A model generated the notes under the pieces. The model was given only the letters and a program-made list of their open reading frames with translations. It was not told the DNA's origin and ran no database searches. A stretch of 59,941 nt of DNA, filler included, from Hausera hauseri (taxonomy: Eukaryota), in assembly GCA_046269625.1 (NCBI GenBank). It is 10 parts of 10 records of this genome, joined end to end, with 100 filler letters (N's around TTAATTAATTAA, not from the genome) between each part and the next. Parts side by side here need not be neighbours in the genome. Positions count along the whole stretch, not along the records: positions 48,475 to 55,252 come from JBJURY010066549.1; 9 more parts are not named here. One strand, given 5' to 3'. A program made the position numbers and the translations under genes. This document shows positions 8,532-59,159 of this stretch, in pieces. The number at the start of each line of letters is the position of its first letter. The stretch's first letter is position 1.

Positions 8532-8548
8532 AGTTTCTTTTGAGACTA

Positions 8549-9300: not shown

Positions 9301-9349
9301 ATTTTTCGTTCAGCTTGATCCAGATACTTTCTGGTTATGAAAGGTTTTT

Positions 9350-15700: not shown

Positions 15701-16190
15701 CCTATGAATAACCGTCCAGACAAATATACCACGCCACTCAACTTTGTTATGATAAAGCCGAGTGTGACACTTCGTATAAATTGCCATCCACTATCCTTTT
15801 CGGTATAGTTGGCGATCTTCTCATCCAACTTTTCGCATATATCGGCAATAAAATCTTCCGAATACGGTACGGCTCGATATGACAGGTACCATTGTTTCCT
15901 GTCACCTACAACGTTTTCAAATTATGCAAGTGCATAATATTGCACTTTGCAGTTGTTGCGTTTGAATTTATCCACCTGTAATTCCAACCGGCTACGCACA
16001 CCGGACGGAACATGTCTCAGCTGTACTGTTGTTGTCCTCGAAATGTTTGCTTTCATGTCCACGTACGATTTGATTAGATCGTACTTGACAGTAATGGAAG
16101 GTTCCTGCTGTTGCACCTGCTGCTATTCGGTACTGTTTTGGATGTATTCGTCAAGACGTGTTCAGGCCTGACGTTTCCTGCTTGTTCAGA
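12737..16190 (-). pseudogene. Polinton/adintovirus protein-primed DNA polymerase B (pPolB)
   Basis: VVYADIEA; DHDHFTGRYLGSACNLCN; VIFHN; KGIFPYD; DVYLLTDVF; NNLYGWA; NSLYG; SDTDG; C-terminal DDDK...SWAYGHWRLK* ending at 12737. Confidence 0.95.
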
Positions 16191-16705: not shown

Positions 16706-16805
16706 NNNNNNNNNNNNNNNNNNNNNNNNNNNNNNNNNNNNNNNNNNNNTTAATTAATTAANNNNNNNNNNNNNNNNNNNNNNNNNNNNNNNNNNNNNNN
16801 NNNNN
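16706..16805. other. Artificial contig linker
   Basis: 44N-TTAATTAATTAA-44N. Confidence 0.99.
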
Positions 16806-17195: not shown

Positions 17196-18167
17196 GTGTA
17201 TAAAAATAACTATGCTCTTACAGAAGCAGAAAAGACTGACAAGTCACAATTTGTTCAAAGATGGCCAAGAGACGTAGCCTCCGAGTTAACCAATTATCAA
17301 GAACCAGGATTTATATCAGGTGAAGAATTGTGTCAGCTGCTAACAGTATTACGCCAAACTTCCGGAAACGGACGTTGTTTCCGAAGCACACAAATGGTTA
17401 TAATGCAACAAAAACTACGGGAACTAAGAGAATCAAATAAGGATGCGAACTTAGTCCGGCCGTTAGAAACTCCGGAGATTGATTTCGGACTACCCGAAAA
17501 CGAAAACGAATGGGACGCGTATCTGAATGCAATAGTTGCCGAAAACCCGAAAACTCCCGTGCACTTGTACGAAACGGAGACATGTCCACCAGATCAGAGA
17601 TTCAATGTGGAGATGCTTCTGGACTCGGCACAAACTGAAAAGGATCTAATAAAGTTAATAAATGTAAACCTTACCGAAAATCAATTAAGACGGTTAGTTC
17701 CCACCCTAACTAAATTATCTAGCGAAGGTACGATTTATCGTGCTGCACAAAAACTTTTAATCAAAGAATATGCTAAAATCTTAAGGACAAGGCCCGAAGA
17801 GACGATTAAAGTAATAATAACGTCTGACTGAATGGACTAGAAGGAGCACGAGTTTACAACACGTTCCCTTGTGAAGGATGTAGCACTGTGGTTAAGGAGT
17901 AATGGTCATAAAAATGAATTGAACTGTAGGCTTCATTTTAGAGGAAGAATATTAGACAAACTGGAACTACTAATAGAAATTGGAATTATTCCAGACGAAG
18001 CAAACCGCATAGCGGTTACCATTCCCACCGACGAAGCAAAAGAAGAGGCCACCAGAAGGGCGAAGACTGAACAGTGGGTAGGACGAATTGTAGGAGTTCG
18101 ACATGCAGCAATGTACTTCAAATACTTGCAAAAGATGAAGACAAGGAACAATATGATAAGAATTTAG
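17196..18167 (+). pseudogene. N-terminal ORF with a ubiquitin-like domain (about 17800-18030)
   Basis: ORFs 17196 and 17871 are in one frame across two stops: TIKVIITSD*MD*KEHEFTTRSLVKDVALWL...CRLHFRGRILDKLELLIEIGI, compared with ubiquitin [21 protein letters not shown]. Confidence 0.55.
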
Positions 18168-20283: not shown

Positions 20284-20959
20284 AAAGCGGATGTGGAACG
20301 ACATGTTGACTACCATAATCGAAAACGTAAGACATTCGATTACAAGCAAAAATTCATGGATACTAATACACGAAGATATAACTCTGACATGACGAGCCTA
20401 AGGGAGGAGACGTTCTCTCCAAGTCGAACAGGCACAAAAACTACTCTGCTATGAAACTACCATTACCAATACTACCGCCAACGGCACCTATATATGAAGA
20501 CTGTGAGAAACAATCTGAGCTCGTGCCAGACAGGAGTCAATCGGAAGCCGTTTAATCTAGAGGATCCTTACGAAGGAACAAAACACTATGGGATATTGCG
20601 TAAGATCCACGAAACAAAAAGAACGTCTGCCCCACATCGCCGCGCGGCAATCGACGATCACGGTATAATTTATTCACCTAGAATACCTAAATCAAACGAA
20701 AGGCAGTCAACATTTACCGGAAGCCGCGAAACACACCATCTCAGAAACCAAGAGATCCAGCCGCCAGTTAGAAAACAGGAGATAGAAAACGTAAATGGTA
20801 TGAATAACGAACTATACCCAATTGGAGTGTTAAGACAATTAATCGATTGGCCAGTTGAAACCACTGATGTCACCATCAACGGCTATACGTTATCCACAAT
20901 ACGACACCCCCACATAGAACCAAGCTATTACGGTGCCGTAATCGAAGGAAGCCCTTCGC

Positions 20960-23900
20960 AAAAATTCAAATAGAAGATTGGGAAGTTTGCGGACTGATAG
21001 ATACAGGATCCTAAATCTTGCTGATAAAGTATAATTCGATACCACAATTCCTAAGGAAACAATTATATCCATCTCCTACAACAGACCCAGGAAGTGTCGG
21101 AGCCTTCGGCCAATCGTCTAAAAGCAAATTTCGTTGGAAATTGGAAATTCGCATAATGGGACAATCTTTCCATCATGAATTTTCAGTAATGGAACAATTA
21201 ACGGATGATGTAGTATTGGGGTGCGATCTATTGAGGCAACTACCCAACATAGCGATAGATTTCAATGCAGGGAAATTAATAGAACTTGGTCCAATAAAAG
21301 GATTAAAACCACTAAATACAAAAAATTCGGAGAAATGTGGATTCCCGTGGATGAAAACATACCGCCCAGAACCGAATTGCTAATATATGCTCAGATACGT
21401 CATGATGACGATCAGAAAGTATATTTTAAGCCAAAAGAATCGATTAATCCTAACATTGTGCTCAGCAACGTTTTGACAAGAGTATCAACGGGCCGCGTGC
21501 CAATTAGAATAGCAAATAACGCACCGACCCCGATCAAGCTATATGCCAATACCACTTTGGGACACACGTATAGAGTGTCATCAATTACTATCGAAGAGAA
21601 ACCGTATAAAGGCTCCGAATTTCCACCCCACGTTGAGATCAAATTTTCACCGGAGTCATATAGTCGATTTTACGAATTACTTTGTCGATATAGCTCGGTT
21701 ATCGTAAAAGATGAAGAGGATATTGGCCGAGCTAAAGCTTTAAGACTCACGATCCCACTTAAGAAAAAGCCTGGGTCCAACGATAAAATAGATTTAGAGG
21801 ATCAAAAGATGCCGAAATTGTATCCCCTCCACACTCGTTAAGACCGGAGATAACCAAGGAGGTTGAACGGATGTTAAAGGCAGACATAATCAGACCAAGC
21901 TATAGACCTTATTATTCACCTATCCTTATGGTTAAGAAGAAATGTACCACTAAGCACCGATTTTGTATCGATTATCGAGCGTTAAATACGCTCACGATGA
22001 AGGACTCTTTTAAATTACCATCGGTAAAGAAAGCTCTGGATAGGCTTTCTGGAGCTAAATGGTTCACCACACTTGATTTAAAATCCGGATATTGGCAAGT
22101 AGAAATAGAGGAAGAAGACCGTTACAAAACCGCGTTTAAGACACACGACGGTATATACGAATTTAACGTCATGCCATTTGGAATAACTACCGGACCAGCC
22201 ATCTTTACCGGCATGATGAACAAGATGCTGATGGGATTAGAACACGCGTTCGCCTACCTAGATAACGTCATGATTGAGATAAAAACGGAAGAGGATCATT
22301 TAAAGGATATTGAAGGTATGCTCATGAGATTGAAGCAAGCTGGATTGAAACTGATTCCTAAGAAAGGCAAATGGGCTCAAAATGATGTATCTTATCTTGG
22401 ACACAGTCGGGGAAGGAGGATCAAAGCCGGATAGATCATTGCTAAATAAAATATAGGACTGCATGGAACCACAGAATCAAAAGGAACTAAGATACTGGTT
22501 GGGATTATGTCAGTATTATGCTACGTATGTTTCAGATAATTTGGAGATAAACACACCCTTGAATCGCTTGCTTAAAAAAGGGATAAAATGGAAATGGACC
22601 GACGTTGAACAGAAACATTTGATGAAATGACGAAAATTCTAACTAGTGAATCTGTATTAAGATATCCTTACTTCAACCTAACGTTCATAATCAAAACAGA
22701 CGCCAGTAAGGAAGGCATCGAATACGAACTAGCTCAGAAACGAGGAGACGAGGAACTAGAACATCCGATCGCATATGGAGGGGGCTCTCTAAAGAAAGCC
22801 GAGAAAAACTACTCTGTAACGAAGTTGGAAACGCTAGCGGTGAATGAAACACTGAGACATTTTAATGTATACGTCTATGGACAGAAGATTGTAATCGTCC
22901 CTGGTCACAAGGCGGTCACAACCTTGAAAGGTAGAGCAAATAATCCAACCTGTAGACTCAACAGATGGATCTAGGAGATCTCACGTTACAACATTGAATT
23001 CCAATGCAAGCCTGGAAATAAACATGTCGATGCCGATGCATTATCGAGACTTAAAACTAAGACAAGCGCAGTTGCGGTAATGAGGAAAGCCCACCTGAAA
23101 GACTTAGTAGAAAGACAACGGACTCTCACACTGGATAAGGCATTGACGATTTCTATCGAACAGAGAAACGACAAAGTTATACAACAAATTATCGAGTTTG
23201 TTGACACCAACAAACCACCAAATGGTCATAAGTTACGGAAACACCTACGACGACATGGTCACAAATACTGCATCGTAAGAAATTTGAACCACGGAAATGT
23301 TTTGTACCACAGACGAAAGGGACGAAAACTAGTCGTCATATTAAAGGGACTACGTGCGGAAGTACTAATGGCTGAACACGACTCATACCTAGCCGGACAA
23401 ATGTCGTGGAAGAAAACATTGGAAAAAATATTAAATAAATATTACTGGCCGAGCATTTACATTGACGAGATAAATTGGGTGAATGCTTGTGAAGTATACG
23501 CAATCAAACAGAGAAAAGTGAAAAACTACATCACGGAACTTAAACCTATCAATGTGCCAGATAGACTAATGCAGGCAATGTCCATGGATATTGTAGGACC
23601 ATTGCCTACAACTCACAAAAACAATAAATACATTTTGACCTGTGTAGACCGATTGACTCATTTCGTCGAGCTTATAGCGTTAATAGACCAAAAGGCCGAG
23701 ACTTTGGCAGAAGTAGTAGTCTGGAAGATTATTTGCAGATACGGACCACCTGAACAAATTTTGACAGACCAAGGAAGAAACTTTACAAGCAAATTGTTCG
23801 AAAAAATTAACAAAATTTTTGAAATTGGACGATTAACTACCACAGCTTATCATCCCCAGTGTAATGGAATGGTTGAACAGATGAACGCGACAGTTACATG

Positions 23901-27751: not shown

Positions 27752-27851
27752 NNNNNNNNNNNNNNNNNNNNNNNNNNNNNNNNNNNNNNNNNNNNTTAAT
27801 TAATTAANNNNNNNNNNNNNNNNNNNNNNNNNNNNNNNNNNNNNNNNNNNN
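27752..27851. other. Artificial contig linker
   Basis: 44N-TTAATTAATTAA-44N. Confidence 0.99.
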
Positions 27852-34265: not shown

Positions 34266-34365
34266 NNNNNNNNNNNNNNNNNNNNNNNNNNNNNNNNNNN
34301 NNNNNNNNNTTAATTAATTAANNNNNNNNNNNNNNNNNNNNNNNNNNNNNNNNNNNNNNNNNNNN
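34266..34365. other. Artificial contig linker
   Basis: 44N-TTAATTAATTAA-44N. Confidence 0.99.
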
Positions 34366-35713: not shown

Positions 35714-36420
35714 CTAGTGATCATAGGCTAAAGAAGTATTACGACTCGTACAATGTCGTTTATTTTTAAATATAGATAGTGCACGTTTCATATGTTTAAC
35801 TGTTTGTGTCTGGAAGTTAAAAGACTGAAACCTTGTTTGATCAACATTAAACACCGGACCATCATTATGAACTTTAAGGCAATCATTATGATTTAACATT
35901 GCCTGTTCGACGATGACACCCTTTGCACCGGATCCAGATCGGTGTAAACTGTATCATTTGGTATTCACGAACACAGTTTTATCGAACTCATCACCATGTC
36001 CTTCATCTTTACATAAGCCTATTTAATTGGCACACGTATTGGAACAAAAAGCATGATCAGATGGATAACTGCTTGTGTCCAGTAGTTTATCTCGTTGTAT
36101 CTTTTGAAGTTTAATTTATTGACGTTACGGCAGCAGAAGGAAAAAACTATTAGTATCATCGGCAATAATATCTATATCACAGTTGAAATGACGTCGTATG
36201 ATTCTAATTCCTTGTACTGTAGCTCATACATGCGGAATTTACACCAATCCAATACCGTTTCACCAATGTAAATAGGAAGGTTCAAACATACTGAATTACG
36301 GTAAAGTAAAATAGCTACGATATTTTCTTCTATGTGAGAAGGTAGAAGTGAGCTCTCCACCTTACTTCTCTGATTGGTCCGCCGACCAGTTTTCCACACT
36401 TGATTAGTTATTTTGAACAT
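35714..36420 (-). pseudogene. pPolB C-terminal remnant
   Basis: LNLPIYIGETVLDWCKFRMYELQY; KRALSIFKNKR...SLAYDH. Confidence 0.8.
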
Positions 36421-36459
36421 TTTACTAAAATTTTCTCACGACCTTCCCAGAAAATGAGG

Positions 36460-37230
36460 TCAAGTGATAAGGTTCATACCAGGTAATGCCTCAAACCGCT
36501 GTTTTTCAAAACCCAATACCATGGCCAAAGTTTCGTCCAATAAAATGTTGACAGTATCCTTAGCCAGTTCAAATTTAATGTACCCATTTGCACGTGATTC
36601 GAATACTTTAAATGTCACATTGTACTTTTGATTTGAAGAAAAGTATTCAGAGAGATGTGCTACAGATTCGCAATGGACATTGTCTCCAATCGATACGTAT
36701 GACGTTGACACTCTTTCCGCTGTATAAGTAAATTTCACTGTTGTCTGGTAATATACGGGACTTAATCTTGGACCAACTATATATTCACTTTTAATATTTT
36801 GACCTTTGTACTCTGTATTTTTGAATCCAAATTTCTGCGCCATCTCAGAGAACTCAAAGGTGACACTAAATTCAAAATCTGCCATAAAATGTACGTTTTA
36901 ATCTAAAATAAAAACACTGACTTCGCCGTGTAAACCATAATTTGCTTCGGTCGTGCAAATGGTCGATTCTCCAACCGTTACTTTATTGTTAGTAAGTGTC
37001 AGAGAACAAAAATGTGTTTTGATTTCCCTAACAGTTTTGTTGTACGTTATTTTGATACTATCTTTCAATGTCACCAGTGCGTAGGGAAAGTTAAATTCCG
37101 TCAGTGCAACCTCCCATTTTCCAGCAGAAAAATCCAAAGGATTGTTCCAATCTACAACGTATTCACTAGCGGAATTGTTCGGACAAATCGTCGGACAACT
37201 GTTGCTCGGCAACACCATGTAAATACTCAT
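36460..37230 (-). pseudogene. Polinton minor capsid (penton-like) protein 2, N-terminal part
   Basis: MSIYMVLPSNS...PNNSASEY...NPLDFSAGKWEVALTEFNFP; LAMVLGF. Confidence 0.8.
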
Positions 37231-37279
37231 AATCTGGATGATAATGGTTATGATGATGACGCAGTTTGTTTATTACCAA

Positions 37280-37670
37280 CGTTGACGACGTCGAAAATGT
37301 AACGTCAAATGTGTCGTTAACCAAACAGAAATTTAATTGGTTCCCATAATTCATCAAGCATATACACGGAAATACTGTGCACAATATTGTGAAACAATGA
37401 TAAGTACATGGGTCTGAGCATATTAACGCGAACAGTTTCAACCGATGTTTTGTACGCGTCAGAATCCAGTTCGATAGAAGCCAGTAGTTGTTTATGTTCC
37501 CCACGAATGAGTACGGATTCGGTTAAATCCGTTAAAATGTTGAATCTATAAAATGCTCCATAGAGTTGTCGTTTGTATTTGGCAACAATAGATCGCCCAA
37601 CAATGTTTTGATAGAATTGGCGTTCTGAAAAATCAGTTGCATATTGCACTACCCGAACGAACTGATGCAT
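37280..37670 (-). pseudogene. Polinton minor capsid (penton-like) protein 1, C-terminal part
   Basis: NILTDLTESVLIRGEHKQLLASI...RPMYLSL...ISVYMLDELWEPIKF. Confidence 0.75.
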
Positions 37671-38574: not shown

Positions 38575-38674
38575 NNNNNNNNNNNNNNNNNNNNNNNNNN
38601 NNNNNNNNNNNNNNNNNNTTAATTAATTAANNNNNNNNNNNNNNNNNNNNNNNNNNNNNNNNNNNNNNNNNNNN
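38575..38674. other. Artificial contig linker
   Basis: 44N-TTAATTAATTAA-44N. Confidence 0.99.
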
Positions 38675-43827: not shown

Positions 43828-43927
43828 NNNNNNNNNNNNNNNNNNNNNNNNNNNNNNNNNNNNNNNNNNNNTTAATTAATTAANNNNNNNNNNNNNNNNN
43901 NNNNNNNNNNNNNNNNNNNNNNNNNNN
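43828..43927. other. Artificial contig linker
   Basis: 44N-TTAATTAATTAA-44N. Confidence 0.99.
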
Positions 43928-46900
43928 GCCGATTTTGTTTGTGATCGCGCTACTGTACAACGGATGATCCGGTGAGTAGTTGGACGTGTTCAGTAATTTA
44001 TCTGACCGCATTTGCTGCAGTAGATGTTCGCGATTGACGTTTTTCAGCCGCAGACAAAAACTGTCTGTGTCACCGGCAGTTATGTCAATATTGCAGCCAT
44101 TAAACATTTGCCGCTAACGTGTCAAATGGCGATACTGTAGCGCATACATCCGCAACTTTCTCAGGTCCAATACCATTTGTCCGATGTAATTTGGCCGGTC
44201 CCGAACGACTTCTTCCCAGTTTAACAGCATTGCAGCCAATGCATCGGCAGTGTGAATTGACCGCCGAAACTGCACCTTACTCGTGTACGTGACCAACCAT
44301 TTTCCGCTATTGCATAGGCGTATATTTCGCCGCTTTTTCAGATTCTCCACTGTTTTCCGTACAGAGAATTGTTTTTCAGCTTGTAGTAGTCCTTTTCGAA
44401 CTTTGTGCAAGCTGCAACTCCTTTCTCCGAATTCCTATCTATGTACGCCTTGAATATTGGAGCCTGAGCAAATTGAATTGCACGATGCAGCTGTGTGACG
44501 CGTACACCGAGCTGCATGCAGAACTGTAGAACACACCAATTGACCACGTAATTCAGCTTTGGTTCATGCGTCATGAGCAGTTTCTTCACTTTTGAGCCTG
44601 GCGGACATTGGTTAAATGCTGCGACCGGTAAATTATCCAAAACGTCATGCAGCTCATCCGGTACCACGTGATCGACCTCCATCAGGTATTCGACTGAGCC
44701 TGCCATGTCTGCTCGTGGTAGATTGACCATTATATCCTCCAGATCTTGTATGTCAACAACCCATTTGAGTGAACCATACGGCAATATTTGCGAAAGCGCC
44801 CAACCGTACAGATTATTAATATCAATATACAGCAGTGATGTGGTATCGGTACTCTGACCTGATGCTTGTTGACAGATGTCATGCTGCCGCGAATACAAAC
44901 ATCAAACAGCCGGTACATTTCTGGGTCTTGCAGCAGCTCAATGTCCCGATCCAGTGACATTAGAGCTGACGCCCAACTCATTCCCGGTATGGAATAAAAA
45001 CTACATGGCTCCAGCTTATCGTCAACCAACATTTTCGCTTGAAACGCTTGGAACACATCGGCTAATAAGTACACGTTTAATTTAAGATGCTGGAGCATGT
45101 AATCCAACATGTTTCTACAGCCGAGTTCTGTCCAACACCTCTATGCTTTCCGGTATTCATCCTATGCGATACCTGTCCATCGCCTCGGTAATTTCTCTGC
45201 TGTCCGAAGTCGCTCATACAATGTTGCAAAGTGATATGGGAATATGCCTTTTCTGCGTGCAATATGTACGGAGAACTGCGTCAATGCTATTGGCACATCT
45301 GACAAGGCATTTACCAGCTTAGCAATGAATTAATGAAACGTACCTGGAACCGGTTTATACTGGCAGGCAGTGACAGGTATTTCTCTATCGTAGTCAGAAT
45401 TATGGATAGTTTCCAGTGCGGAAATCCGTTTATTGCCAATTTCAAAACATGGTGACAATCATAATTCCTGGAATTATGAAATTCCACCGGTAGGAATGGC
45501 CGCTCACGCCTTGCTAAATTGCATGAATTACATGCGACTCCGAGATATGGACCGGTAAAATGATCGTGATCCGGTACAAGCCGTTTCTGTGCATAGAACG
45601 GTAACATTTTGTGGCACAGATATTGCAAACGTCAGGCGTTTATCTTCTTTTGTCCAGATCATAGGTTTGGTGCTATTATCGCAATACCACGGTGCAATTT
45701 CCGTTTCCACAATGGTTTGCAACTGCTGCAAGAAATCGCGTACACAATTCCATCCGTGGAAAACATAATATTGAGTTTGACTTGCAGCTTTTATTGGGAC
45801 AACCAACATACTGACGGCGATTGGAACATGATTTTGGTCATATATATTGTGCCCTGGTAAGATAGCTTTGATATTGTCATATACTACATATGCCGGACTG
45901 TCTGTTTTAAACCAATTAGTGAACCTGGGTTCCTGTTTGACGGGCATGACATACATTGTGGTTCCTGACTAATTTTGTCTGAACAGGGTCACATGTTTCG
46001 TTAATGTTGTATCCGACCTGAATCCATCAAGACATACAGGACACCATTTACACTGTATCCGTTTTTGGAGGAAATGGTCATGCTCCATATTTGGTAGTCT
46101 GTCCAGATTTATCACTGCAAAGTAATGGTACTTTTTATTTTGTTCCATTAGCAACAAATTTACTGAGCGGCCATTTAGGTTCCGACTACTATAGAATATA
46201 TCCACATGAGGATTTTTGTAAATTTCTTCATCCGCCGGTATTTCTACCATTGCATTGTACCGGAAAACGTTGATTGCCAGTGTCGGATTACGCCGCTCAA
46301 AAGTCGGAATGGATTTCAATTTTATTGGCATCTAGCTTTTATCAAAATCTAATTCGGAAAAATATTTTTGATACTGTTTTGGACAAGATGCACTATGTCT
46401 GTCCACTTCGTCATATTTCAATACCGCCAGAATACTGTAAAGAAAACAGTATTCATCCTTAGTATTTTTCACATTCACTACCGCCAGAGACTGCTTCAGC
46501 ACTGCAGGTGTCGGTATGAATGATCGTCCAGACAAATATATTGTCACTCGACTTTGTTATGATAAAGCCGCGGGTGACAATTTGTATAATTCGCCATCCA
46601 CTACCCTTTTCTATATAGTTGGCGATTTTCTCCTCGAGCTTTTCGCATACGTCGGCAATAAAATCATTGGCATATGGTACAGCTCGATGTGACAGGTACC
46701 ATTGTTTCCTGTCACCTTCAACGTTTTCATATTCTGCAATTGCATAATACTTCACTTTGCAGCGTTGGTGTTGGAATTTCGCCACTTCTCATTCCAACCG
46801 ATTGCGCACATTTTGCGGAACATATCTCAGTTGCATTGTTATTGTTGTTCCTTCGCCGACATGTTCACTTTTATGTCCACGTACAATCTGTTCAGGTCAT

Positions 46901-47174
46901 ATTTGACATTAATATCGGATTCCTGTTGTATCTGTTCCTCTTGCTGTTGCTGTTCCTGCTGATCCTGATGTTGCTGTTCTTCTTCCAGCCCGGTACTAGT
47001 TCTGATGTGTTTATCCAGACTTGTTGATACTTTACGTTTCCTACTGGTTGTTGTTGTTATTGTTAAAGGGACGCTGCTGATTTTTGTTGATTCCATTATT
47101 AATTCTTTTTTCGACCACCGCTGAAACTGGTTTAAGTGGTCCTGGTGCTCATTGTAAAATTGTTCATAGTTCAT
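43928..47174 (-). pseudogene. Polinton pPolB, same subfamily as 12737-16190, 3' end cut
   Basis: KGSGW; DEYCFLYSILA; DHDHFTG; YIDINNLYGWALS; KLKNNSLYGK; GDTDSF; DNA visibly alignable with contig 3. Confidence 0.95.
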
Positions 47175-47186
47175 TTCATAAACTAT

Positions 47187-47462
47187 TCAACAACCGAGAC
47201 AAATATAGGTCCGTTTACCGTGCACCGTTGAGGCGCGATAGTATTGCTCCATTGCACTATGGCAACCATCAACGTCGTGCACTGTACTTGTACAGTGCCA
47301 TGGGTACATGGGGCAATGCATTAGCATCATCTTCTTAGACTGTGTAAATTGTCCGAGATGACGCATATGCATTTCATAGAAATGGGGGTACGGACATTGG
47401 GTTGAAATATTACACGTCGGACACAGATATGTGTCCATTCCAACGTTGTAATATTTCGCCAT
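47187..47462 (-). CDS. Duplicated Cys/His motif region upstream of pPolB
   Basis: YLCPTCNISTQCPYPHFYEMHMRH and YICLGC.../YEQFYNEHQDH. Confidence 0.65.
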   Translation of the reverse strand: MAKYYNVGMDTYLCPTCNISTQCPYPHFYEMHMRHLGQFTQSKKMMLMHCPMYPWHCTSTVHDVDGCHSAMEQYYRASTVHGKRTYICLGC

Positions 47463-48374
47463 CTGTTTATGAAACTGTTTTGCCTCCTCACGTATGCGAG
47501 AGATACAGTATATGGGATATTGTGAACAGTTCTAAATTTAAACAAATTAAAGAAAATGTTAACTTTAAATTGAAAACATTAAGTACAATTATATAATAAA
47601 TTGATATACACAAACTTATTTCTCTTACGCAGGTATAAATATATCAGCTATATTACATATTACAACTTAAATGGAAAAGTACATTTAGAGTGAAATTCGG
47701 AAATGGACAGATGAAATAATGACTGGACACGTGTTTAACGTTCCGTATCTATGTGAGCTGACAGAAATCAGGATAATGAGCAGACGACAGTGTATTGAAA
47801 TAATAGTCCCATCTCCCTTCATAAAACTTATTTAAGATGAGTGGAAACGAAAGCGGCAACGACGTATTAATTTCCTCAATGGAATTGTATATTCTGCTTC
47901 GCTTTGTATTGTAATGAAAAAGTTGATTAACCGTATTTAGTCAAAAATTTTGCTGCTTGTTTTCGTGACTTAATATGATTTCTTTGTTATATTTCAGTAC
48001 AAATACATGCGCTTCTTTACGGTATGACATTACGACATGTCCCATTTAACAGAACACATTCGTTTATATCACTCGTTTGACCGTCTCCGAAGTTTATTTA
48101 AAATCTTGATCGACCTTTACATGAAGCACGATACTGTTCGCTCGAAGAGATACTCCGGCGTGTTGAGGAGAATTGGAGGGCACGAGAACCTTATCTACGA
48201 CATATAAAGCAGGTTTTTGTTGACACGAACACGATTTTCGGCCCGATTTTTCGCTCCTATCAGAAATTGGCATTGCATGACAATCCACGTCAAATACGGT
48301 TTGAGGAATACTTAGTCAAAGGTGATTGCAACATTCCAACGTGACAGTGAGCAGATCGGATTTGTTTCAAGCAA

Positions 48375-48474
48375 NNNNNNNNNNNNNNNNNNNNNNNNNN
48401 NNNNNNNNNNNNNNNNNNTTAATTAATTAANNNNNNNNNNNNNNNNNNNNNNNNNNNNNNNNNNNNNNNNNNNN
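48375..48474. other. Artificial contig linker
   Basis: 44N-TTAATTAATTAA-44N. Confidence 0.99.
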
Positions 48475-48920
48475 GTAAGAACAATCGGTCCATGATCACG
48501 ATACGGACATCGGATATTGTCAGGTACCATCGACAGCGAGTGATTTGATGTTGTTGAATACGTCTTCGTTCGCAACTCGGGAAACTGTGAATGGAGTTAT
48601 GTAAACTTTTGTCCGTCAATTTGATCTTTAATGTAAAATATTGTATTTTTAATGTCAAAACGATCACAAATGTCTCGCATAATATACGTCGCACAGAAAA
48701 TTGAATTGCCTTCATATCAATGAAGTTTATGTCGATGTCGAAAGAGAAATCCGTTTGTAATTTTCGCTTTTTCCTTCAGATTTTTCCACACAATACCAGG
48801 CTTGAATATGTACACAAGCAGTTCAAAAATGTTACCTACGTCCATAATGCATAATTCCTTTATTATATACCGGGCATTATCATCTTGGAAAGCTTCAATA
48901 TCTATAAATCCTGTTGCCAT
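48475..48920 (-). pseudogene. DEDD-type exonuclease-like protein
   Basis: MATGFIDIEAFQ...YIIKELC...IFKP...HKLH*YEG (ExoI DxE motif). Confidence 0.65.
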
Positions 48921-49001
48921 TAATTATCATGTACAAAATAATTTTTTGTTTATAACACAAGCAAAAACAACTAACTATTATTATTATCATTATCGCAATA
49001 A

Positions 49002-49445
49002 CTAAACATAGGTGGTTTTGTCCATATCACCAAAGCCAAATTCTTTGAGTTCATTTCGTGTCGATTCATTGACACAAAACAGTCCCCATTGTTTTGGCGA
49101 CATGACACTGAATTCCGCCTCTTCACGGCGAAGAATAACGATTTGTGCGATTGCACTGCCTTTCGAAAAAGCATACGGTTCGCCGGATTGGTTTTCTAGC
49201 AACAGCTAAATATCACCACGAAAGTTTAAATCAATAGCGCCGCCCACAACCATCAGTCCGAGCTTTACAAGTCCACTTTTCGATAAAAGTTGGCCATAAT
49301 AACCGGGTGGAATCGCCAGTCGAATGCCAGTCGTTATGCATTTGATTGTACTGCCCAGAATTGTCGTAGCCTGCACTTTTTTTGTAACACGTCTCGGTAC
49401 AAAGGCATTTTCGTCTGTTAAGATAATCTTTACATCATTCATTAT
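49002..49445 (-). pseudogene. dut: dUTPase
   Basis: AFVPRR; TGIRLAIPPGYYGQLLSKSGL; GGAIDLNFRGDI*; GSAIAQIV; RNELKEFG. Confidence 0.92.
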
Positions 49446-49519
49446 CACTATTCTTATGTCAATATTAACATTACACGTANNNNNNNNNNGGTAAAACAAT
49501 AAAATTTATTAATAATTAA

Positions 49520-50110
49520 AATGTGCTTCAGTTACACGCCAAATCTGGCTTTTTATACCGGCTTTTCCTTGTATCCCTGCAATACAATATTCAGTCAACA
49601 CTAAACCACCACCACCATCATCGTGGGTAAATGAGACATTTTGCGACCGATAAAATCAAACAATTTCGTTTTCTGCGCCGGTAAATAGACAGACTGCTGT
49701 TGTACGGTCGTTTCGTTTAACTTTAAATCAACGTTTAATTGATGTACAGCATCAGAAAGTTTATCCGAATTTTTACCAGAAAGCCATTTTACACGATAGT
49801 TGTACTTGGGTGTGCGTAGAGACAACGGATCATTCAATGAAATCAGTACGGGGGTTTGCAGAAAATGCATTTCATACTTGCGAAAAATTCGTTTCGGTAA
49901 AAATATCTGTGTTTGACGCTCCGACGGTTTTGATTTTCCTTTACGTATTCCAGTCATTGCATTTCGCCTTTTTAACGTCGGTTTTGCTGCTGCTGATGAT
50001 TTCTGAGCAAGGTCCTGTTTCGTTTCCAGACAATCGATCTGACGACAATCGTTCGGTTTTTTTAATTGTTGGACAGGTTTCAGCAGTTTGACATTAGAAT
50101 TGTCCTTTTG
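49520..50110 (-). pseudogene. Conserved Polinton protein of unknown function
   Basis: ORF 49601..50161 plus frameshifted tail LQGYKEKAGIKSQIWR, homologous to 11998-12449. Confidence 0.55.
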
Positions 50111-50120
50111 NNNNNNNNNN

Positions 50121-50768
50121 CCAATCGGAATTTTTATCATACGCACAACCATCATCATCATTGAGTAAAATCATTTTATCGTCGTCGTCTTTCATAGCAG
50201 TAATGTCTGAATGAGCATGGGAATGGTATTTATAGTTTGTTATTCTTGTGCAATGTACATTATTTTGATTCTCTAAAACATTTATGTGGTTTTTAATTTG
50301 ATTAATAATCGGTTCATAGTCCACTGTCTGAATACCGAGTACAACGATTTTTCTACTCCTAAACACATTGACACAAAGTGGGCAAAATGATGTAAGTCTC
50401 AGTGCAGGAAACAGTTCGGGTTCATGCACAAATTCAGCAGTGACCATTGCTAATTTGTACAGATTGATTGTTTGGTGGTAGTCTAACTGAGTCGTTACCG
50501 TTAATAATTGGATTTGGTTAATGACAATTCCGAGTGGCAGTAGTTTACTGTTACTGTTGTTAGCTGTGATTGGTTTGCGACAGCCCATAATACGACACTT
50601 TTCCGATTGAAATATGATGCATGTAAAATCCGGTGGACACTTGAGGACATACTGCATCGGCTTCCATTGATTAAAATGTAGCGCGTTAATGTCACACCCG
50701 GTAACATGTCCGCGATAGTTGATATTAGCGAATATTGTGGAAACAGTGTTTATACTATAGCTATTCAT
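50121..50768 (-). CDS. TATA-box-binding protein (TBP)-like protein
   Basis: Two TBP repeats: FANINY...TCIIFQSEKCRIMG and IQLLTVTTQLDYHQTINLYKLA...HEPELFPALRL...VNVFRSRKIVVLG, compared with TBP TALIFSSGKMVCTG and YEPELFPGLIY...LLIFVSGKVVLTG. Confidence 0.85.
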
Positions 50769-50799
50769 ATGTGCGTGTAACACGATTATAAACAAATCA

Positions 50800-51480
50800 T
50801 GTGGTGAACAAAGGTTGTATTATTATTATTAGATAAAGCTGCATAATGATGATATTTTCCACACTGTAGGCCCCAGTGGAAGTGGCAAGACACACTTTGT
50901 GTGTAAACTATTTCAGAACTAACATGACATGTTCCATTCACCGTGGTACAATCACATATACTGGCATCAGGGTGGTGGTGATGATGGTTAGTCTGGTCTG
51001 ACACATCGGGAATTTTGTAAACTGAAATCGATAACGGTAATTGATGGGTTTAATGAGAACTGGTCAGAGAGATTACGCAACGGTGACGTTATTGTAGTTG
51101 ACAGTTTATTTCAAGAGGCAACGAAATAATCGGACTTCAACAATCTGTTCACGAAGATTGCACGAAACCGTGGTGTGACGGTTATTTTCATTACACAAAA
51201 CATGTTCCATCAGGCGGACTGCATTGAACAAGAAATCTAAACGTACATTATTTTGTGTTGTTCAAAAATTCCCATGATCAGACTAGCATTGATTTTGTTG
51301 CACAATAAGCATTTCCTCACAATCGAGCCTACTTAATAGATGCATATTATGACGTTACAAACGGATACTTGTTCATCGACTTTGCACAATTGTCCCGATG
51401 ACATGCGTGTACAAACAGACATTTTCAATCAGAAAGGTAGTGTATGTGTCTATAAACAAATTCGAAAATCGACGACATGA
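50800..51480 (+). pseudogene. A32/FtsK-like DNA packaging ATPase (absent from ORF track)
   Basis: Walker A GPSGSGKT at 50869-50892; Walker B-like DVIVVDSL; LFTKIARNRGVTVIFITQNMF. Confidence 0.9.
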
Positions 51481-51492
51481 TTATGATAAAAA

Positions 51493-52034
51493 ATGAAGAA
51501 TTTCCGAAAAACAATTGTTAAACGTAAACCTACCAAGCGGGTGTCCGGTGGCAAGAAACGTGTATCAAAAAGAACCACTGCTACAGTCAGGCGATTAATC
51601 AATTCTGTTTCGTCGAACAACAAAAGCAGCAGCTAGACGCAAATTTCTGTCACAGTGGCAACGGTTATAAACAACTACGTCTCATCATCATCAATACGTC
51701 CAAAAAAGTGCGATTTAAACGTAGTCAGCCGTACATTATTGCTTTGCTCAAGGCACCTACGAAACATAAGCGAAACATGCTGCGATCATTCTCACAGTTT
51801 GTAGTGGACTATTTGATGGAAATTTTATACATTATCGTTTTGGGTCACGTTGACATTGGTAGTGGAAAGCAGAATTTACTAAAGTATCGAAAACAATTCA
51901 TTGGCCTTGCCAACGCCTGTAGTAAACGATTGAAACGGGAGGTTATGTAACAGCAAGACAGCGGATTCCTTGGTGCAATTCTACCGATTGTCACGTCATT
52001 ACTGGGTGGACTCATTTGTTCTTCAGCAGCATAG
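51493..52034 (+). pseudogene. Basic core-like peptide followed by conserved Polinton small protein ending in a GFLG amphipathic segment
   Basis: MKNFRKTIVKRKPTKRVSGGKKRVSKR (51493-51636); 51708-52034 reads ...EILYIIVLGHV...LLKYRKQF...M*QQDSGFLGAILPIVTSLLGGL. Confidence 0.65.
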
Positions 52035-52184
52035 TATAAACAATGACGATAAGTATATGATGATTCGGCGATATGGGTGCATGGTTTTCATGTTTCTGTC
52101 CCAGTTTACCGAATCTTTCATTCACGTTTCGTTCTAATTGTTGCAATGCATGCAAAACCGACAACATCGACGTCAACGATTGGC

Positions 52185-53218
52185 GATGTGTGGTTCTACC
52201 CGCGTCATTCTGTCGGCTATACTGACGTCGACAAACTGGCAAAGACTGTCAAACAGACTCGGCAACAGACCCAACGTTGGCTCCGGAAACAGTTAGCATA
52301 CAGCCTAAACAAACCGATAAGAAGGCGGTTTCTAACTCGTGCATACCGTGGTACCAGTGTAAATAACGTATGGCAAATGGATCTAATGGAAATGATTCCG
52401 TACACCAGCATCAATGATGGGTATTGGTACGTGCTGACATGTGTTGATGTGTTTAGTCGTTTTGCACGTGCAATTGCTCTGAAATCTGAATTCGGTAAAG
52501 AGATTGCCGACGCTGTCCAGACACTGATACAACAACAACAACTGAAGCATTTACAAACGGATTTGGGTAAGGAATTCTACAACGCCCACGTTTCAGCGGT
52601 CTTGAAACGGTTCTGCATAAACCACTACTCGGTGTTTTACCAATACAAGGCTGCACTCGTTGAACGATTTAATCAAACATTGCGCGGTCGCCTAAACAAA
52701 TTCTTTATGAAGCAATGAAACAAACGCTGGGTAGATGTACTGCGGGATATTATTCCTGAATACAATCATTCGACACGTCGTGGCATCAATGGATTACGAC
52801 CGGTTGACGTAATCGATGATTTGGACATGTGGCTTTATCAAAACCGAACAACACAAGGACAACGACAACAGGCAATTAAACGCCCAAAATATAAAATCGG
52901 TACTTACGTACGTATTTCGAAAATAAGTACGATGCCATTCATTAAGCATTTCAATCAGAACTGGAGCGACGAGTTTTTCCGCATTTCCGCAATCAACATA
53001 AAACAAACACCTATCATATATGTTTTACAGGATGAAAACCGTGAAGAAATACGCGGTAAATTCTACGAACATGAACTGCAGGTACTGCCCGAGAAACCCG
53101 ATGTATATCGTATTCAGGAAATTCTATGTTCACGTGGCAAAGGTTCGAATAAACAATATCTCGTCAAGTGGCACTGATACACTACATCGAGGTGGATAAT
53201 TGCATCGCAGATTGAGTG
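52185..53218 (+). pseudogene. Polinton retroviral-like integrase with C-terminal chromodomain
   Basis: WQMDL; VDVFSRFA; LQTDLGKEF; KAALVERFNQTL; NWSDEFF; GKFYEHEL; YRIQEIL...QYLVKW; stops at 52716 and 53175. Confidence 0.95.
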
Positions 53219-53284
53219 ATGAGCATTTATTTAATACTTGATAGTAACAGATTATCAGAACATGACAACAACAACAACAATACC

Positions 53285-54472
53285 GTTGAACGATTTACCA
53301 TCATTATATAGCCAAACTCGATCTTCTGCGTGTTTTTGATCCTGTACGAGTATACATAAAAGAGCATACATGAAACACATGTTGTCATTATTATGGACAT
53401 TAACATGCTTTTTATTAGCGATCCATTCCGAAAGTTGAATATATGAACTACCCCGCATGGGAGAGTACTTGTGAACATACACCAGCAATCCCTTGATGGT
53501 TGCCAGAGTCCATCCACTCTTCTTACTCTGGCTCTCATCGGCTTCATGGATCAGCTTTGCATGCTCTACATGCAGCCATTCTTCTATATTGCGGGCTTCA
53601 AAAATAAGTCTATTTCTGGTCTTGAAGGCCCTTTTGGACTCTTCGCCATCAACATTGACGTATGTGGCCTCAAGTTTCATATTAGCCTTAATGGCCTTGA
53701 GCTCAGCTATGTTGTCCTGGAGAATTCCCTCTGTTTCTTCCTCTGTGTACTCCAGGAACTCCTTGATGGTTGTTTGACCAGTTGCATCAATGACATATTT
53801 GCGGCATTTCCTCTTTAAGGCTGCAGCATCAACTGGCCGCTGCCTTTGACTCTTTGATGGAGCTGCTGCATCTCATGCACCTGATGCACCCGATCCGCCT
53901 GATGCGCGTTTTAGTCCTGCATTTGGCTGCACTGCAGGCTGTGGTACTGCAGGATGTAGTACTGCAGGTAGTTGTACTGCAGGTTGTGCAACGGGCTTAT
54001 GTTCATTAAAGATGATCTTTGACTTTCATGCGAAGTCAGTCAAATGATGTTTGTGATCTTCATAAAACTGTATGTATTCTCCATCACATATAGTCTCACA
54101 TCCTGGGCGGATATAATGTGATCCTATTGAATGTGTCCATAATAGCTCCTCATGGTATTGTGGCAATTCTGAGGGTTATGTATTACACATGCGCAATACA
54201 CATAAACTGCATCTTTGATTTACCTTTAAAGTCTTTATTGGCATATTGGTTCTGAATATTTATTTTTTCGACTTGGTGAAAGAAATCAAGGGCTGCTTAC
54301 AGACATTGTAAAAGTCTTCATAATTGATTTGGCACACTACCTCACATGTAGGGCATATATAATACTGAACCCTGTTGCACATATGGCCAAAGTACTTCTT
54401 CATAATATTGTGGCAATTTTCAGGCTCATGGATTTGAGCCAAACATTCAACCAATTGTTTTGAGGAGCACAA
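53285..54472 (-). pseudogene. pPolB N-terminal portion with Cys/His motifs (same subfamily as contig 10); catalytic part absent
   Basis: RAFKTRN; KSGWTL; GSSYIQL; NDNMCFMYAL; near-identical DNA to 58400-59145 and 59790-59941. Confidence 0.85.
53931..53990. repeat. 4 x 15-bp coding minisatellite
   Basis: actgcaggctgtggt/actgcaggatgtagt/actgcaggtagttgt/actgcaggttgtgca. Confidence 0.85.
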
Positions 54473-54680
54473 TTAAATACTCACTATTCGTCGAAGTGAT
54501 GTCGGAAATAATGAAATATATTGCCATATCACCATGTACTGCCTCGCTTATTGATTGGATTAATGCGCTTTTTTGTTTTAATCCGTCAATTAAATACGTG
54601 GGGGCGCCAAATTTAAGGTTTTCGACCATGGGGAATCGAATGATTTCATTAGATTCTTCGTATAATGTATACTTGACCAA
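54447..54680 (-). CDS. Small Polinton ORF of unknown function
   Basis: 77-aa ORF directly upstream of the Cys/His region. Confidence 0.35.
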   Translation of the reverse strand: MVKYTLYEESNEIIRFPMVENLKFGAPTYLIDGLKQKSALIQSISEAVHGDMAIYFIISDITSTNSEYLIVLLKTIG

Positions 54681-55252
54681 TTATTCGATTTCGAATAGCT
54701 AAATATTCGACGTAAGCTCGAATTTGAATACCTGATGCCATACTCCGATTCGGCATACATGACTTCCTATCCCACCCCGCTTATAGATTTATTGATTCCC
54801 GCTTCACTGGGCTTTAAATGCACATTTTTGCTTAATTCGAAATATTGATTTTGTGCCTATATAGTACATTTTCATTTAATAATTTTTATTTACAAGGAGG
54901 TTTTCATATTTGAGGAATCGATTGCCGCTGTTAGAATTTTCGAATAGTTCAATATTGGATATTCGAGCTCGATAATATTAGAATTTCGAATATCTGACTC
55001 GAGATTCGAAATCGTAATGGTCGACTTCCTATCTGTCCTCGCTAATTATAATATCAAATTTTGCTCCCTTAGGGCCTAAAAATACCTATTGGGAGTCTGT
55101 CTCAGTTTCACTTTTGATAGATATTATTCGAAAATTAATCGACAAATTTAAATTCTAGCTGCACAATCATATACTGCATCGTATTTTCAATCGATTGCGC
55201 CCGATCACATGTCCTAATTATCAATATTGGAAATATCGGAAATCCGATATTA

Positions 55253-55352
55253 NNNNNNNNNNNNNNNNNNNNNNNNNNNNNNNNNNNNNNNNNNNNTTAA
55301 TTAATTAANNNNNNNNNNNNNNNNNNNNNNNNNNNNNNNNNNNNNNNNNNNN
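55253..55352. other. Artificial contig linker
   Basis: 44N-TTAATTAATTAA-44N. Confidence 0.99.
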
Positions 55353-55616
55353 ACAAATTGGTAACTATACCAAAGAACATTACATGTATTTATCGTGAAC
55401 ATGGTTCACATTGTGCATATAAAAAGTTTCTAGCGTTATGTCAAAGTTATATTGTTACTAAATAAATGTATTATGAAATTAGTTGGTCTTAACCTATATG
55501 ATAGTTGCTTAATTTTACTTGGCCTTATCCTATATTCCACATTACTTGATCAAGAAGACAACACGATATTTCTATACAAAATTTATTAAACAAAGAATAA
55601 AAATGAATAACAATAT

Positions 55617-58600
55617 TTACAGTGCCACATGTCTGTGAGCTAGTGTGTGGATTACATCGTTCAGGATCTGCCTCTTGTCATCCATACAATCTGGGCTTTT
55701 CTGATGCAGAGTTACTGTTTGGATGTTATGATGCCTAGATTGGATCCTTATCATTTCTGAAATGATGTGATTCTGCTCCTGCAGAACTGTCACAGTCCTG
55801 AAAACTGATCTTGGCTAAGGTAGCCCTTTGGACGCCATTGGCTCGCTTTTTGATCTGACCACATACGTTTAAAGCATACATTTTATATCTGAGAGCTACA
55901 AGTCGCAAGATGACTGCTTCTTTCACCTCGTCTTTGAATTTCCGAAGGACTTTCTTATTGGCAACTAAATAGTTGGGATGATCCTTATGATAGTCCGAGG
56001 TATTCATGTGTTGAGTCAACTGGGAAAGACCTCATAAATATCATCTGTATGGATCTGATAGATGAAACTATGAGTATCCATATACATCAGCTGCATGGAC
56101 TTGAACTTTGGGACCATTATATCGTAATGGAATCTGTACATTAGGGTCTTTGATAGATCCAATATTGCCATACTCACGTATATGGACTTGTTGAATACCA
56201 ATGCTGTTTTCAGCATATGGATGCCTACCAAGTTCTCAGTATATATGGTGCTGCTATAGAAGTTGGGCTTGGCAATGAGATTCTTTGCCCGCTTCCAGTC
56301 ACATACTAGCTCAATGTTGATCCTGTTGCGGATATACCCCATGGTCTTGCCAAAAACGCTGTTGTTATATAGTTTGATTTGATATTTCTCAAAGTCGCTC
56401 TTGGCATTAGTCCGCAGCTTCGTATTGAGATCTGTATATGACTGCAGTCACATGGACTGGTTGAATTGCAGGACTGTATGGATGATAGTAATACGAAGTC
56501 CATGTCTAACTGCCTGCTGGAGATTGATGTAGCGAACTACATACCTCCCCTTATTCCCCATATGACAGAGCAGCTTTCTCTGTTTGCCATGGGGCGGATG
56601 CCTGCTCTCATGGACGAAAGGCAGCTGTTGATGCCTTGCGTGAATGGAAGCCAGATATTCCATATCTACCTCCAGTATGTATCGCGTATTTTCAGTAGGA
56701 TCTAGGTCCAATATAGGGATGTTTTCAGGATTCTTGACCCATTTGAAGTTATCATATGGCATGAAACGCTCATTGCCCATCCCTACAAGTTGTTGGCATC
56801 CAGATATGATACATATGAGGATTCCTTTATTGAATCGTATTCGGCCATATACTTGTTATTGGTCTCATTGTACTGGTGAATGGCCTGGCATATTCCGCCT
56901 CTAATGCCTCTCTCGATCATAAGGGTCATATCATAATCCGTAATGATCTGCAGCCTTATGCCGGTATATCTCAGCATTTCTGCCCAACTCATTTTTAGAG
57001 CCGTAAAGAAATGAGCCGGATCCAATGCATGGTTCTTCATTGTAACATCCCTGAAACTCTCAAAGACATTTGTCAGCAGCAGCACATCGGTTTGGAGATA
57101 CATATCACTATATTCCCCTAATGTTTGGCATTGGAATGTCTGCCAGACGTTCTATTCATGCTGGTAGTCAGCATTACTGATATCGCAATCAGAGAGGATA
57201 TAGTAAAAGTCCTTATTGTCCGGCAATGAGGTCTTATCCAGTGTTTCTCATGAAGTGATATAGTCATAAGGAAACACGCCTTTCATCTTGACTATGTCAA
57301 AGGTAGTGGGAAAGAACCGCTTCGTCTCCTTGAGCTCTTCGGCAGGAAGGTTCTTCACTAAACTGTCCAGTGAAGACGACATGAAACAAAAGCTGTCTAT
57401 GAAGCGAAGTCGGATTTTGCTCACATGCTTAGTAAAAGTGATATATATCTCCTCACTGTTGCGGATCACATATATATACCATCAATGTTGCCTAATTCTC
57501 GGACTATAAAATGGGAATCATAGCCACTGAGATTACGGAACACTACAGGCACATGTGTACATGTTTTGCAGCGAAGATTGCAGTTGTTGCATGCCGCGCC
57601 TCGATATTTGCTTTTAAAATGGCAATGATCCCTGACTTTATGATTCGCCTTAGTGAATGATTTGGAGCACAAGTAACATGCTGTTGCCTTGCGCCATTCT
57701 TCTTACTTCTTCGACATGCTCACTGTATCCTTATGTTGGTGCTACATATCGCCAAGCCTATGAGCCATATTTTCAAGTCGTTTCATGAAATATGTTTCTG
57801 CGCCTGGACCTCTAAATAGATATGGTTCACTGTCCAGTCCCTTGGCATACGTACAATATGATGAGAGCTCATGATATTGGTATGCCGTTGTGCTGCTATG
57901 TTGAGGACTGGGAGTGCATGTTCGAACTGGCCGGAGAATAGATTCAAAGTCGCAATAGATAACTATTGGGACCTTGATCGTATTTTCGAACTCCTTAAAT
58001 TCAATGTAGTCCTCCTTGGGAAATTCTGGCTTTACACAGTAATTGTTGCTGCAGTACATTTTGTGCTCTGCAAGCTTGTACACTGCTGAATCACCACTGA
58101 AATGAGACACACATCGCGTACATATTTCTATTCGTCCATGATGATTCGTAATTTGGGATCTGACTAGACGCTCAAAGTTCTTGATACAAACATGTTGCTT
58201 TTCTCCATTATCTAGTAGGAGCAGATCCCTATGATCCTCCAATTCAGCATCGCATATCTGCAGTGGATAGAATTTGTCCTCATCATCCAATCCAATGATG
58301 TTGATGGATATATTGTTGATTCGCCCGAATTTTTTGACTTCATCTATGGATGGCGGAAACTTAATACATTGGAAATCATAGTTGTGCTGCAGATCATTAT
58401 ATAGCCAAACTCGATCTGCTGCATGTTTTGATCCCGTACGAGTTTACATAAAATGGCATATATGAAACACTTGTTATCATTATAGACATTGACACATGCT
58501 TTTTTATTAGCGATCCAATCGAAGAGCTGAATATATGAACTACCCGCATGGGAGAGTACTCTTGATGGTTGCCAGGGTCCATCCGCTCTTCTTATCCTGG

Positions 58601-59145
58601 CTCTAATCAGCTTCACGGATCAGCTTTGAATGCTCTTTATGCAGTCTTTCTACTATATTGGTGGCTTCAAAAATGGGTCTATTTTTGGTCTTGAAAGCCC
58701 TTTTGGACTCTTCGCCATCAACATTGACGTATATGACTTCAAGTTTCATATTAACCTTAAGGGCCTTGAGCTCAGCTATGTTGGCCTGGAGAATCCCTTC
58801 TGTTTCTTCCTCTGTGTACTCCAGGAATTCTATGATGGTTGTTTGACCAGCTGCATCAATAACATATTTGCGGACTTTTCTCTTTAATGCTGCAGCATTA
58901 ACTGACCGCTGTCTTCGGGTTTTTGGTGCAGCCGCTACGCCTAATGAGCCTGATGGGCCTGATGCGCGTTTTAGTTTTTCATCTGGATGTACTGCTGCAT
59001 CTAGCTGTGGTACTGCAGGCAGTGCTGCTGCAACCCGATTATGTTCATTAAGGATGATCTTCTTTGACTTTGATGCGAAGTCAGTCAAATGATATTTGTA
59101 TGTATTCTCCATCACATACAGCCACACATCCTGGGCAGATATAAT
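55617..59145 (-). pseudogene. Polinton pPolB, second subfamily, near full length
   Basis: VIYCDFES; VRDHCHF...GAACNNCN; RFIDSF; KGVFPYD; YLQTDVLLL; RGIRGG; YLDANNL; NSVFGK; YMDTHS; KFKDE; DDKR...TLAH. Confidence 0.95.
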
Positions 59146-59159
59146 AGATGATTTTTAAC

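Follow-up and report, generated by a model that had tools for sequence, protein, structure and literature searches.

According to the excerpted text of Ravarani et al. 2020 (PMC7221094), the TATA-binding proteins (TBPs) of NCLDVs are two-lobed, keep the L5.1 Phe and have lost the eukaryotic N-lobe signature; C.L3.2 is about 40% conserved in them, and almost all of those viruses encode TFIIB. The same excerpts describe viral TBPs as usually losing the TFIIB Glu and bringing their own TFIIB, and they assign TFIIB contact to a Glu pair of the C-lobe, and contacts with TFIIA, TAF1, Mot1 and Brf to a basic H2 patch of the N-lobe (PMC7221094). The herpesvirus vTBP (KSHV ORF24) is portrayed in the excerpts of PMC12529657 as a TBP mimic with TBP-like Phe residues and a polar DNA interface, which serves the non-canonical late word TATTWAA with host Pol II in the nucleus. 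It is a large, multi-domain protein that binds Pol II directly, needs five viral partners and is without the TFIIB Glu (PMC12529657). For Polintons, the label TBP appears in the legend of Fig. 5 of PMC8502044 (Starrett et al. 2021), in the section on non-animal datasets; the excerpted text of that paper does not discuss it, and its supplement may carry TBP annotation. No discussion of TATA or TBP was found in the excerpts of PMC8097293 (Barreat and Katzourakis 2021), PMC11131425 and PMC12220804. Apart from the figure label, we found in the open literature no account of the TBP family, the reduced anatomy or the promoter box presented below. To our knowledge, gene control in Polintons is essentially undescribed, and whether animal Mavericks go through a productive viral cycle is a long-open question.

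Our sequence comparison identifies a conserved, widespread family of short (about 150 aa) TBP homologues borne by one large branch of Polintons. The related loci share pPolB, an rve-chromo integrase, an A32/FtsK ATPase, adenain, a double jelly-roll capsid, PLA2 and pX with the adintoviruses and animal Polintons-Mavericks outlined in the excerpts of PMC8502044 and PMC8097293. The proteins resemble NCLDV TBPs in their two lobes, the kept L5.1 Phe and the lost N-lobe signature, and differ from them in that both Glu residues are invariant, no TFIIB was seen in the (incomplete) loci and the model predicts outright loss of the N-lobe helices. They are likewise distinct from ORF24 in having about 150 aa, both Glu residues and no extra N- or C-terminal domains; the word before the carriers' structural genes is a different one, YATAAACR, and a fold search with the predicted Polinton model reaches herpes proteins weakly at best (E 2e-3). 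By analogy, we infer that the Polinton TBP works like the vTBP-TATT system without being a member of it. With cellular TBP/TRF and archaeal TBP (PF00352) the family shares the saddle fold and a nearly complete C-lobe with EPELFP, whereas identity to cellular TBP is 17-23%, one Phe and, in the model, two helices are missing, and the DNA face is polar. TBP-based late control, if it holds, would be new in Polintons, as a variant of viral TBP systems.

The TBP-bearing contig

The window, a stretch of 59,941 nucleotides (filler included) from Hausera hauseri (GCA_046269625.1), consists of contigs joined by nine identical N-linker-N spacers, and neighbourhoods across spacers are not real linkage. 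The TBP contig (48475-55252; 6.8 kb, partial) has two short internal N gaps. Its minus strand holds remnants of a family F4 gene, a dUTPase, a family F2 gene and the TBP gene, and its plus strand remnants of an A32 ATPase, a pX-like gene and an rve integrase. The features are as follows.

7244-7343, 11878-11977, 16706-16805, 27752-27851, 34266-34365: N-linker-N spacers
38575-38674, 43828-43927, 48375-48474, 55253-55352: N-linker-N spacers
48489..48954, minus strand: family F4 gene remnant, DEDD-exonuclease-like by eye
48947-48954, minus strand: YATAAACR box before the F4 gene
49209..49478, minus strand: dUTPase remnant (Pfam dUTPase E=2e-5, above cut-off)
49568..49888, minus strand: family F2 gene remnant, a frequent TBP neighbour, SSB-like by eye only
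50094..50768, minus strand: decayed TBP-homologue ORF, intronless, containing EPELFP
50747..50754, minus strand: YATAAACR box, 19 nt upstream of the place where TBP starts in the family
50787..50794, plus strand: YATAAACR box before the packaging ATPase
50833..51471, plus strand: A32-type packaging ATPase remnant (Walker A 50869-50892)
51451..51458, plus strand: YATAAACR box after the ATPase
51528..52007, plus strand: remnant of a basic pX-like core-protein gene, family F5
51666-51673, plus strand: further YATAAACR box, within the pX-like remnant
52035..52042, plus strand: YATAAACR box before the integrase
52134..53198, plus strand: rve integrase with one interrupting stop (rve E=5e-11)

Each of the six boxes on the contig lies on the strand of the gene that comes after it, and in the read comparison no difference at or above 60% is listed at the places of box 50747..50754. 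The ATPase remnant is 44-47% identical to intact relatives, and relatives match Pfam Pox_A32 above cut-off; for F5, one relative has a weak Adeno_PX match below cut-off. Capsid and adenain protease genes are absent from this contig and known in relatives only. The pPolB remnants at 43.9-46.8 kb are separated from it by a contig joint, so their linkage to the TBP gene is not shown. In 27000-59941, the inverted repeats found are linker artefacts only, and long inverted repeats as element ends were rejected, being contig linkers.

The first-pass annotation had proposed an intronless, two-repeat TBP-like ORF divergent from the packaging ATPase, and its observation is confirmed in substance. The minus-strand ORF runs from 50768 to 50094 without introns and contains EPELFP; its family-homologous part spans about 50283-50735, and its 3' end overshoots the family's usual end and reaches a short N gap. 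The Walker A (GPSGSGKT) of the ATPase begins on the opposite strand at 50869, 101 nt from ATG 50768, in agreement with the distance of about 100 bp given earlier, but this ATG is private to the window copy: about 99% of the summed depth in run X1 differs at 50766. The family start codon lies 11 codons inside the ORF, where the window copy is altered (place 50733). The divergent layout holds for the sub-family of this copy, whereas in 25 of 29 metagenome loci with both genes the ATPase follows TBP on the same strand, the other four being one locus with the ATPase upstream, two convergent loci and one divergent locus, which makes the head-to-head arrangement a sub-family trait. Sister copies share it, as one of the 32 listed contig pieces (X4 record 26) bridges the TBP start and the ATPase.

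Comparison with sister copies also reveals decay. In run X1, 13,200 contig pieces of 80-100% identity cover 1480 bases of the stretch, with many variants and giving no copy number; the same stretch is present in three further organisms. The window TBP gene differs from at least 90% of the X1 depth at 25 places, spread 9/8/8 over the codon positions as expected of neutral decay, and these include the SEK codon, the SRK codon and the family's initiator position. The suspicion that SEK and SRK stem from decay was therefore right: the codon changes at 50602 and 50354 are private to the window copy, and SEK/SRK as family traits are rejected. The window ATPase is broken by at least three in-frame stops plus frameshifts, and the integrase by one stop. 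The window TBP copy is probably non-functional; judged by sequence, the family is alive and the window copy dead, a decayed copy of a conserved gene.

Family, fold and protein anatomy

Assignment of the ORF to TBP is supported by profiles and by a predicted structure. Pfam TBP (PF00352) matches the ORF with E=2e-6 and 28 bits, above the curated cut-off of 22.9, and a profile of 84 family members retrieves 35 distinct PDB sequences, all of them TBPs or TBP fusions (best E=1e-19). The AlphaFold2 model built from the same 84-member alignment (pLDDT 82.7) superposes in VIA-align on solved TBPs (human TBP) with Z 12.3 and an rmsd of 3.0 A over 153 aligned residues, the next unrelated fold reaching Z 6.2; Foldseek returns 44 matches to solved structures at E<=1e-3, and among the matches listed all are TBP. 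Both comparisons thus give a TBP fold for the predicted model. The two-lobed saddle is present in it, as the term 'two-repeat' implied, but the first repeat is incomplete, with a reduced N-lobe that is about 10 + 11 residues shorter and without its helices.

The gene recurs across many related Polinton elements. A word-index search gave 88 relatives among 163 candidates, mostly 145-160 aa long, the two closest being 69% (the best value) and 67% identical to the window ORF, and an exhaustive search gave 181 representatives at E<=1e-3. Among the metagenome loci, which are the best 80 of 94 matches, a Polinton hallmark gene occurs in 40 of the 80 and in 23 of the 25 loci of at least 4 kb. The hallmarks are the A32 ATPase, rve-chromo integrase, pPolB, adenain (Pfam Peptidase_C5/C48), PLA2 and a capsid family; pPolB lies on the same contig as TBP in L014, L027, L030, L056, L057, L060, L062, L071 and L092. 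The model of the capsid family (F10) is a double jelly-roll, with matches of E about 1e-15 to the capsids of PBCV-1, iridovirus and virophage; PDB sequence searches gave no identification of this family, and its fold is known from the model. Scans of viral contigs with TBP, ATPase, capsid and pPolB alignments found no Polinton. L001 carries an unrelated full-length viral TBP, without the box. The Polinton contigs L092-L126 lie inside 'prokaryote' MAGs, most likely as eukaryote binning contamination. Families F2, F15 and F18 (L034:464-1150, L023:598-1236, L045:943-1794) adjoin the TBP gene and look OB-fold SSB-like by eye, F15 and F18 with acidic tails at the end; they have no Pfam or PDB match.

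Pairwise dN/dS among 79 locus ORFs, from pairs that are not independent, has a median of 0.28 (101 usable pairs) and of 0.22 in the 31 pairs with dS<0.8, indicating purifying selection; together with the 88 relatives this rejects a chance ORF. In a quick, unrooted tree of 68 rows, which names no donor, 46 family rows stand apart from the TBPs of eukaryotes (15 rows), archaea (6) and one other virus, on a branch of 1.26 changes per column (SH-aLRT 100). The family thus falls outside animal TBP, and its position excludes a recent retrocopy of the animal host gene. The earlier interpretation, a Polinton-borne TBP homologue, is supported.

Residues were scored in 83 relatives on an alignment of the family with cellular TBPs, the DNA-facing positions being those we assign from cellular TBP by strand register. 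E116, E118, F53, F120, F136, R59, M61, C132 and N134 are invariant in 83/83, and N17 in 81/83. Three of the four intercalating Phe residues (F53, F120 and F136) are therefore present, as the first reading of the sequence held; the N-lobe stirrup Phe position is variable and has no counterpart, leaving the four-Phe set of cellular TBP incomplete. N17, R59, M61, R124, C132 and N134, invariant or nearly so, stand where cellular TBP is mostly aliphatic or Thr, and the C-lobe Asn of cellular TBP is kept in none of the relatives. The C-lobe is nearly complete and keeps the EPELFP stirrup. The N-lobe, by comparison, lacks about 10 residues ahead of its Phe and about 11 following strand 5. In the 145/230 proteins that carry all four motifs, lobe spacings have medians of 37 and 50; the 11 cellular TBP rows given have 46-47 and 61-66. 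In the model, H2 of the N-lobe is absent (no helix between residues 63 and 81) and H1 has three residues only, and loss of both helices is predicted for the family. The proteins are basic (median pI 9.4) and their DNA-face residues vary no more than the stirrup does; both features point to DNA as the ligand.

The YATAAACR box and its distribution

A search for shared promoter motifs, suggested in the first-pass annotation, revealed YATAAACR in front of virion-module genes. In an unbiased k-mer count over 261 de-replicated (of 296) upstream windows of 100 nt, ATAAACA occurs in 101 windows against 7.4 expected. YATAAACR occurs in 114 of the 261 on the sense strand and in 4 on the antisense strand, and 200 dinucleotide shuffles gave a mean of 4.9 and a maximum of 11. 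By gene, the box precedes ATPase in 22/25, capsid in 9/11, PLA2 in 10/12, pX in 13/17, F4 in 14/18, integrase in 10/15 and protease in 2/6, and pPolB in 1/5, TBP in 0/40, zinc finger in 0/10, F13 in 0/8 and F9 in 0/7. Grouped into gene classes, a split made after the per-gene table was seen, 94/127 virion-module windows have the box versus 5/97 of the other class. Canonical TATA precedes 21/40 TBP genes versus 20/127 virion-module genes.

The distance from box to ATG has its mode at 33-39 nt, resembling that of the canonical TATA boxes of TBP genes, and a smaller group of boxes lies at 8-20 nt. The sequence downstream of the boxes showed nothing initiator-like. Position 7 is C in 66 windows versus A in 4 and T in 17, position 1 accepts C (29) and the last position G (15), while G at position 2 is found in 2 windows and C at position 3 in none. 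Inside coding sequence the box uses both permissible frames (42 and 48), indicating a DNA word rather than a peptide. The whole window has no box enrichment (19 vs 14.8 expected); it is confined to the element region 47001-53200, with 4+4 boxes vs 1.2+0.9 expected. The window sub-family has a box 19 nt before its TBP start, which is unusual against 0/40 TBP genes of relatives, fits a simple early gene poorly and may reflect autoregulation.

As a control, 44 loci on partial contigs were chosen by integrase alone and screened with three TBP profiles. Two of these contigs carry TBP and have the box in 9/12 virion-module windows, and L093, nested among the TBP carriers, has it in 4/4. In the remaining loci, with no TBP seen, it occurs in 2/82 windows, or 1/45 without integrase windows; a Pfam search of the 65 unassigned ORFs in five long loci of this kind gave no TBP. 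No box at all was present in 26 of 31 integrase-selected loci with at least two windows, whereas half or more of the windows carry it in 24 of 29 TBP-selected loci. TBP-less Polintons of several lineages have canonical TATA-like upstream words or none. The gene order of TBP-carrying elements differs from that of the two-module, TBP-less L083-L090; in the latter, TCGCGC/ATCGCG is shared upstream in 6/24 windows, a count that near-copies may inflate, and canonical TATA boxes stand before the ATPase.

TBP carriers form about one side of a quick, unrooted integrase tree (3 changes), so gene and box may be co-inherited with neither reading the other. The contrast in TBP and box accordingly amounts to little more than a single evolutionary comparison. 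L077 may provide another: its integrase groups with those of the TBP-less loci (support 89), yet TBP and box are present. L053, L065 and L080 have a TBP homologue and no box before two or more virion-module genes, and L079 has a TBP homologue and no box in 5.6 kb. The homologue of L080 (TBP 3-395) is more divergent, with different DNA-face residues, and the capsid, protease and integrase genes of this Polinton are without the box, a possible natural test of co-variation.

A candidate late-promoter TBP and its alternatives

From sequence and model together, we consider it moderately probable that the family is a viral late-promoter TBP acting on YATAAACR together with the host's TFIIB and Pol II. 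The TBP gene itself would, in most relatives, be expressed early from an ordinary TATA promoter via host TBP, and its product would prefer YATAAACR over TATAWAWR. An intact homologue would thus bind TATAAACA better than TATAAAAG, and C at position 7 would be favoured among TATAAACA, CATAAACG, TATAAAAG and TATAAATA. Through its intact stirrup the element TBP would recruit host TFIIB and Pol II; it may use the host TFIIB, as Pfam saw no TFIIB or cyclin fold in 51 representatives of the families or in another 72 ORFs from the eight longest (incomplete) loci. Since the H2 basic patch is lacking in the model, the protein may escape from TFIIA, TAF1, Mot1 and Brf1, and would serve Pol II on element promoters only. 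The bound box would turn on packaging, capsid and integrase genes as a late-gene switch, with transcription starts about 25-30 nt downstream of the boxes. For the broader proposal, that an animal-associated Polinton clade runs an early-to-late cascade with the smallest known viral promoter switch, a TBP of about 150 aa that has no host-regulator surfaces, has shifted its DNA specificity to YATAAACR and takes nothing but TFIIB and Pol II from the host, we hold the chances to be evenly balanced.

The most serious competitor, which we nevertheless regard as unlikely, takes the box as a weak TATA variant read by host TBP/TFIID for delayed expression, with the element TBP otherwise employed and merely co-inherited. 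PDB entry 1qn3 is, by its title, a solved structure of wild-type TBP from a plant bound to the adenovirus major late TATA in its C(-25) variant. The box also occupies the usual place of a TATA box, gene and box coincide with roughly one clade, and L053, L065 and L080 have TBP without the box. We take the C(-25) variant in 1qn3, by the numbering of that promoter, to be TATAAACG, a member of YATAAACR. However, the preference for C at position 7 together with C at position 1 is sharper than, and different from, what host TBP predicts, several TBP-less lineages do with canonical TATA-like words or none, and L077 combines TBP and box on the TBP-less side of the integrase tree. In another reading the element TBP is a decoy, whose kept stirrup ties up host TFIIB and shuts down or dampens host Pol II initiation. 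The invariant TFIIB-contact Glu pair and the loss of the N-lobe partner surfaces and of one Phe are consistent with it, but a basic protein whose DNA face is as invariant as its stirrup is not what a decoy calls for, and the box is left unexplained; we judge this quite improbable. Of the two functions offered in the first-pass annotation, redirection of host initiation is better supported than its inhibition, since a strand- and position-specific box marks the virion-module genes of TBP carriers and hardly occurs in Polintons where TBP was not seen.

Two further explanations are very improbable in our estimate. The forkhead consensus is RYAAAYA, which ATAAACA matches exactly, so the box could be a site for a host forkhead factor to which the element TBP is unrelated. 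Against this, forkhead-type variants are not enriched (2 windows with G at position 2 and none with C at position 3, vs 66), G is tolerated at the last position, and the strand bias of 114 vs 4 and the fixed position are unlike an enhancer site. The other explanation is that the TBP fold has been repurposed outside transcription, for instance for termini binding, replication or packaging. The ATPase and the SSB-like and exonuclease-like neighbours would suit such a role, and the fold recurs in rolling-circle initiators (Z about 6), yet the Z to TBPs is twice that value, and EPELFP, kept letter for letter, is hard to explain without TFIIB.

If the broader proposal is correct, protein and box would constitute an orthogonal TBP-promoter pair and would show directly that these 'transposons' produce virions to a timetable. 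With a dedicated factor and a defined promoter word, one small protein and a reporter of 8 bp are enough to put the proposal to the test, and box and TBP could mark tissues where capsid genes are switched on. The family would also offer a natural experiment in TBP minimalism once contacts with TFIIA, TAF1, Mot1 and Brf1 are gone, and in altered TATA specificity.

Other features were seen in the window. Five minus-strand ORFs of 137-261 aa lie at 7872-10686, AT-skewed and with no Pfam match above cut-off. Decayed pPolB remnants at 12740-16068, 35717-37589, 43883-46788 and 53258-59154 come from two or more Polinton families; the more distant ones, at 53-59 kb, have 27-37% identity to the pPolB of the TBP lineage. 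Broken retroelements occupy 1553-2371 and 18071-23898, with RT and RNase H and, in the second copy, also an integrase; they are envelope-capturing LTR elements, preceded by pieces that match the Monjiviricetes (chuvirus-type) fusion glycoprotein family.
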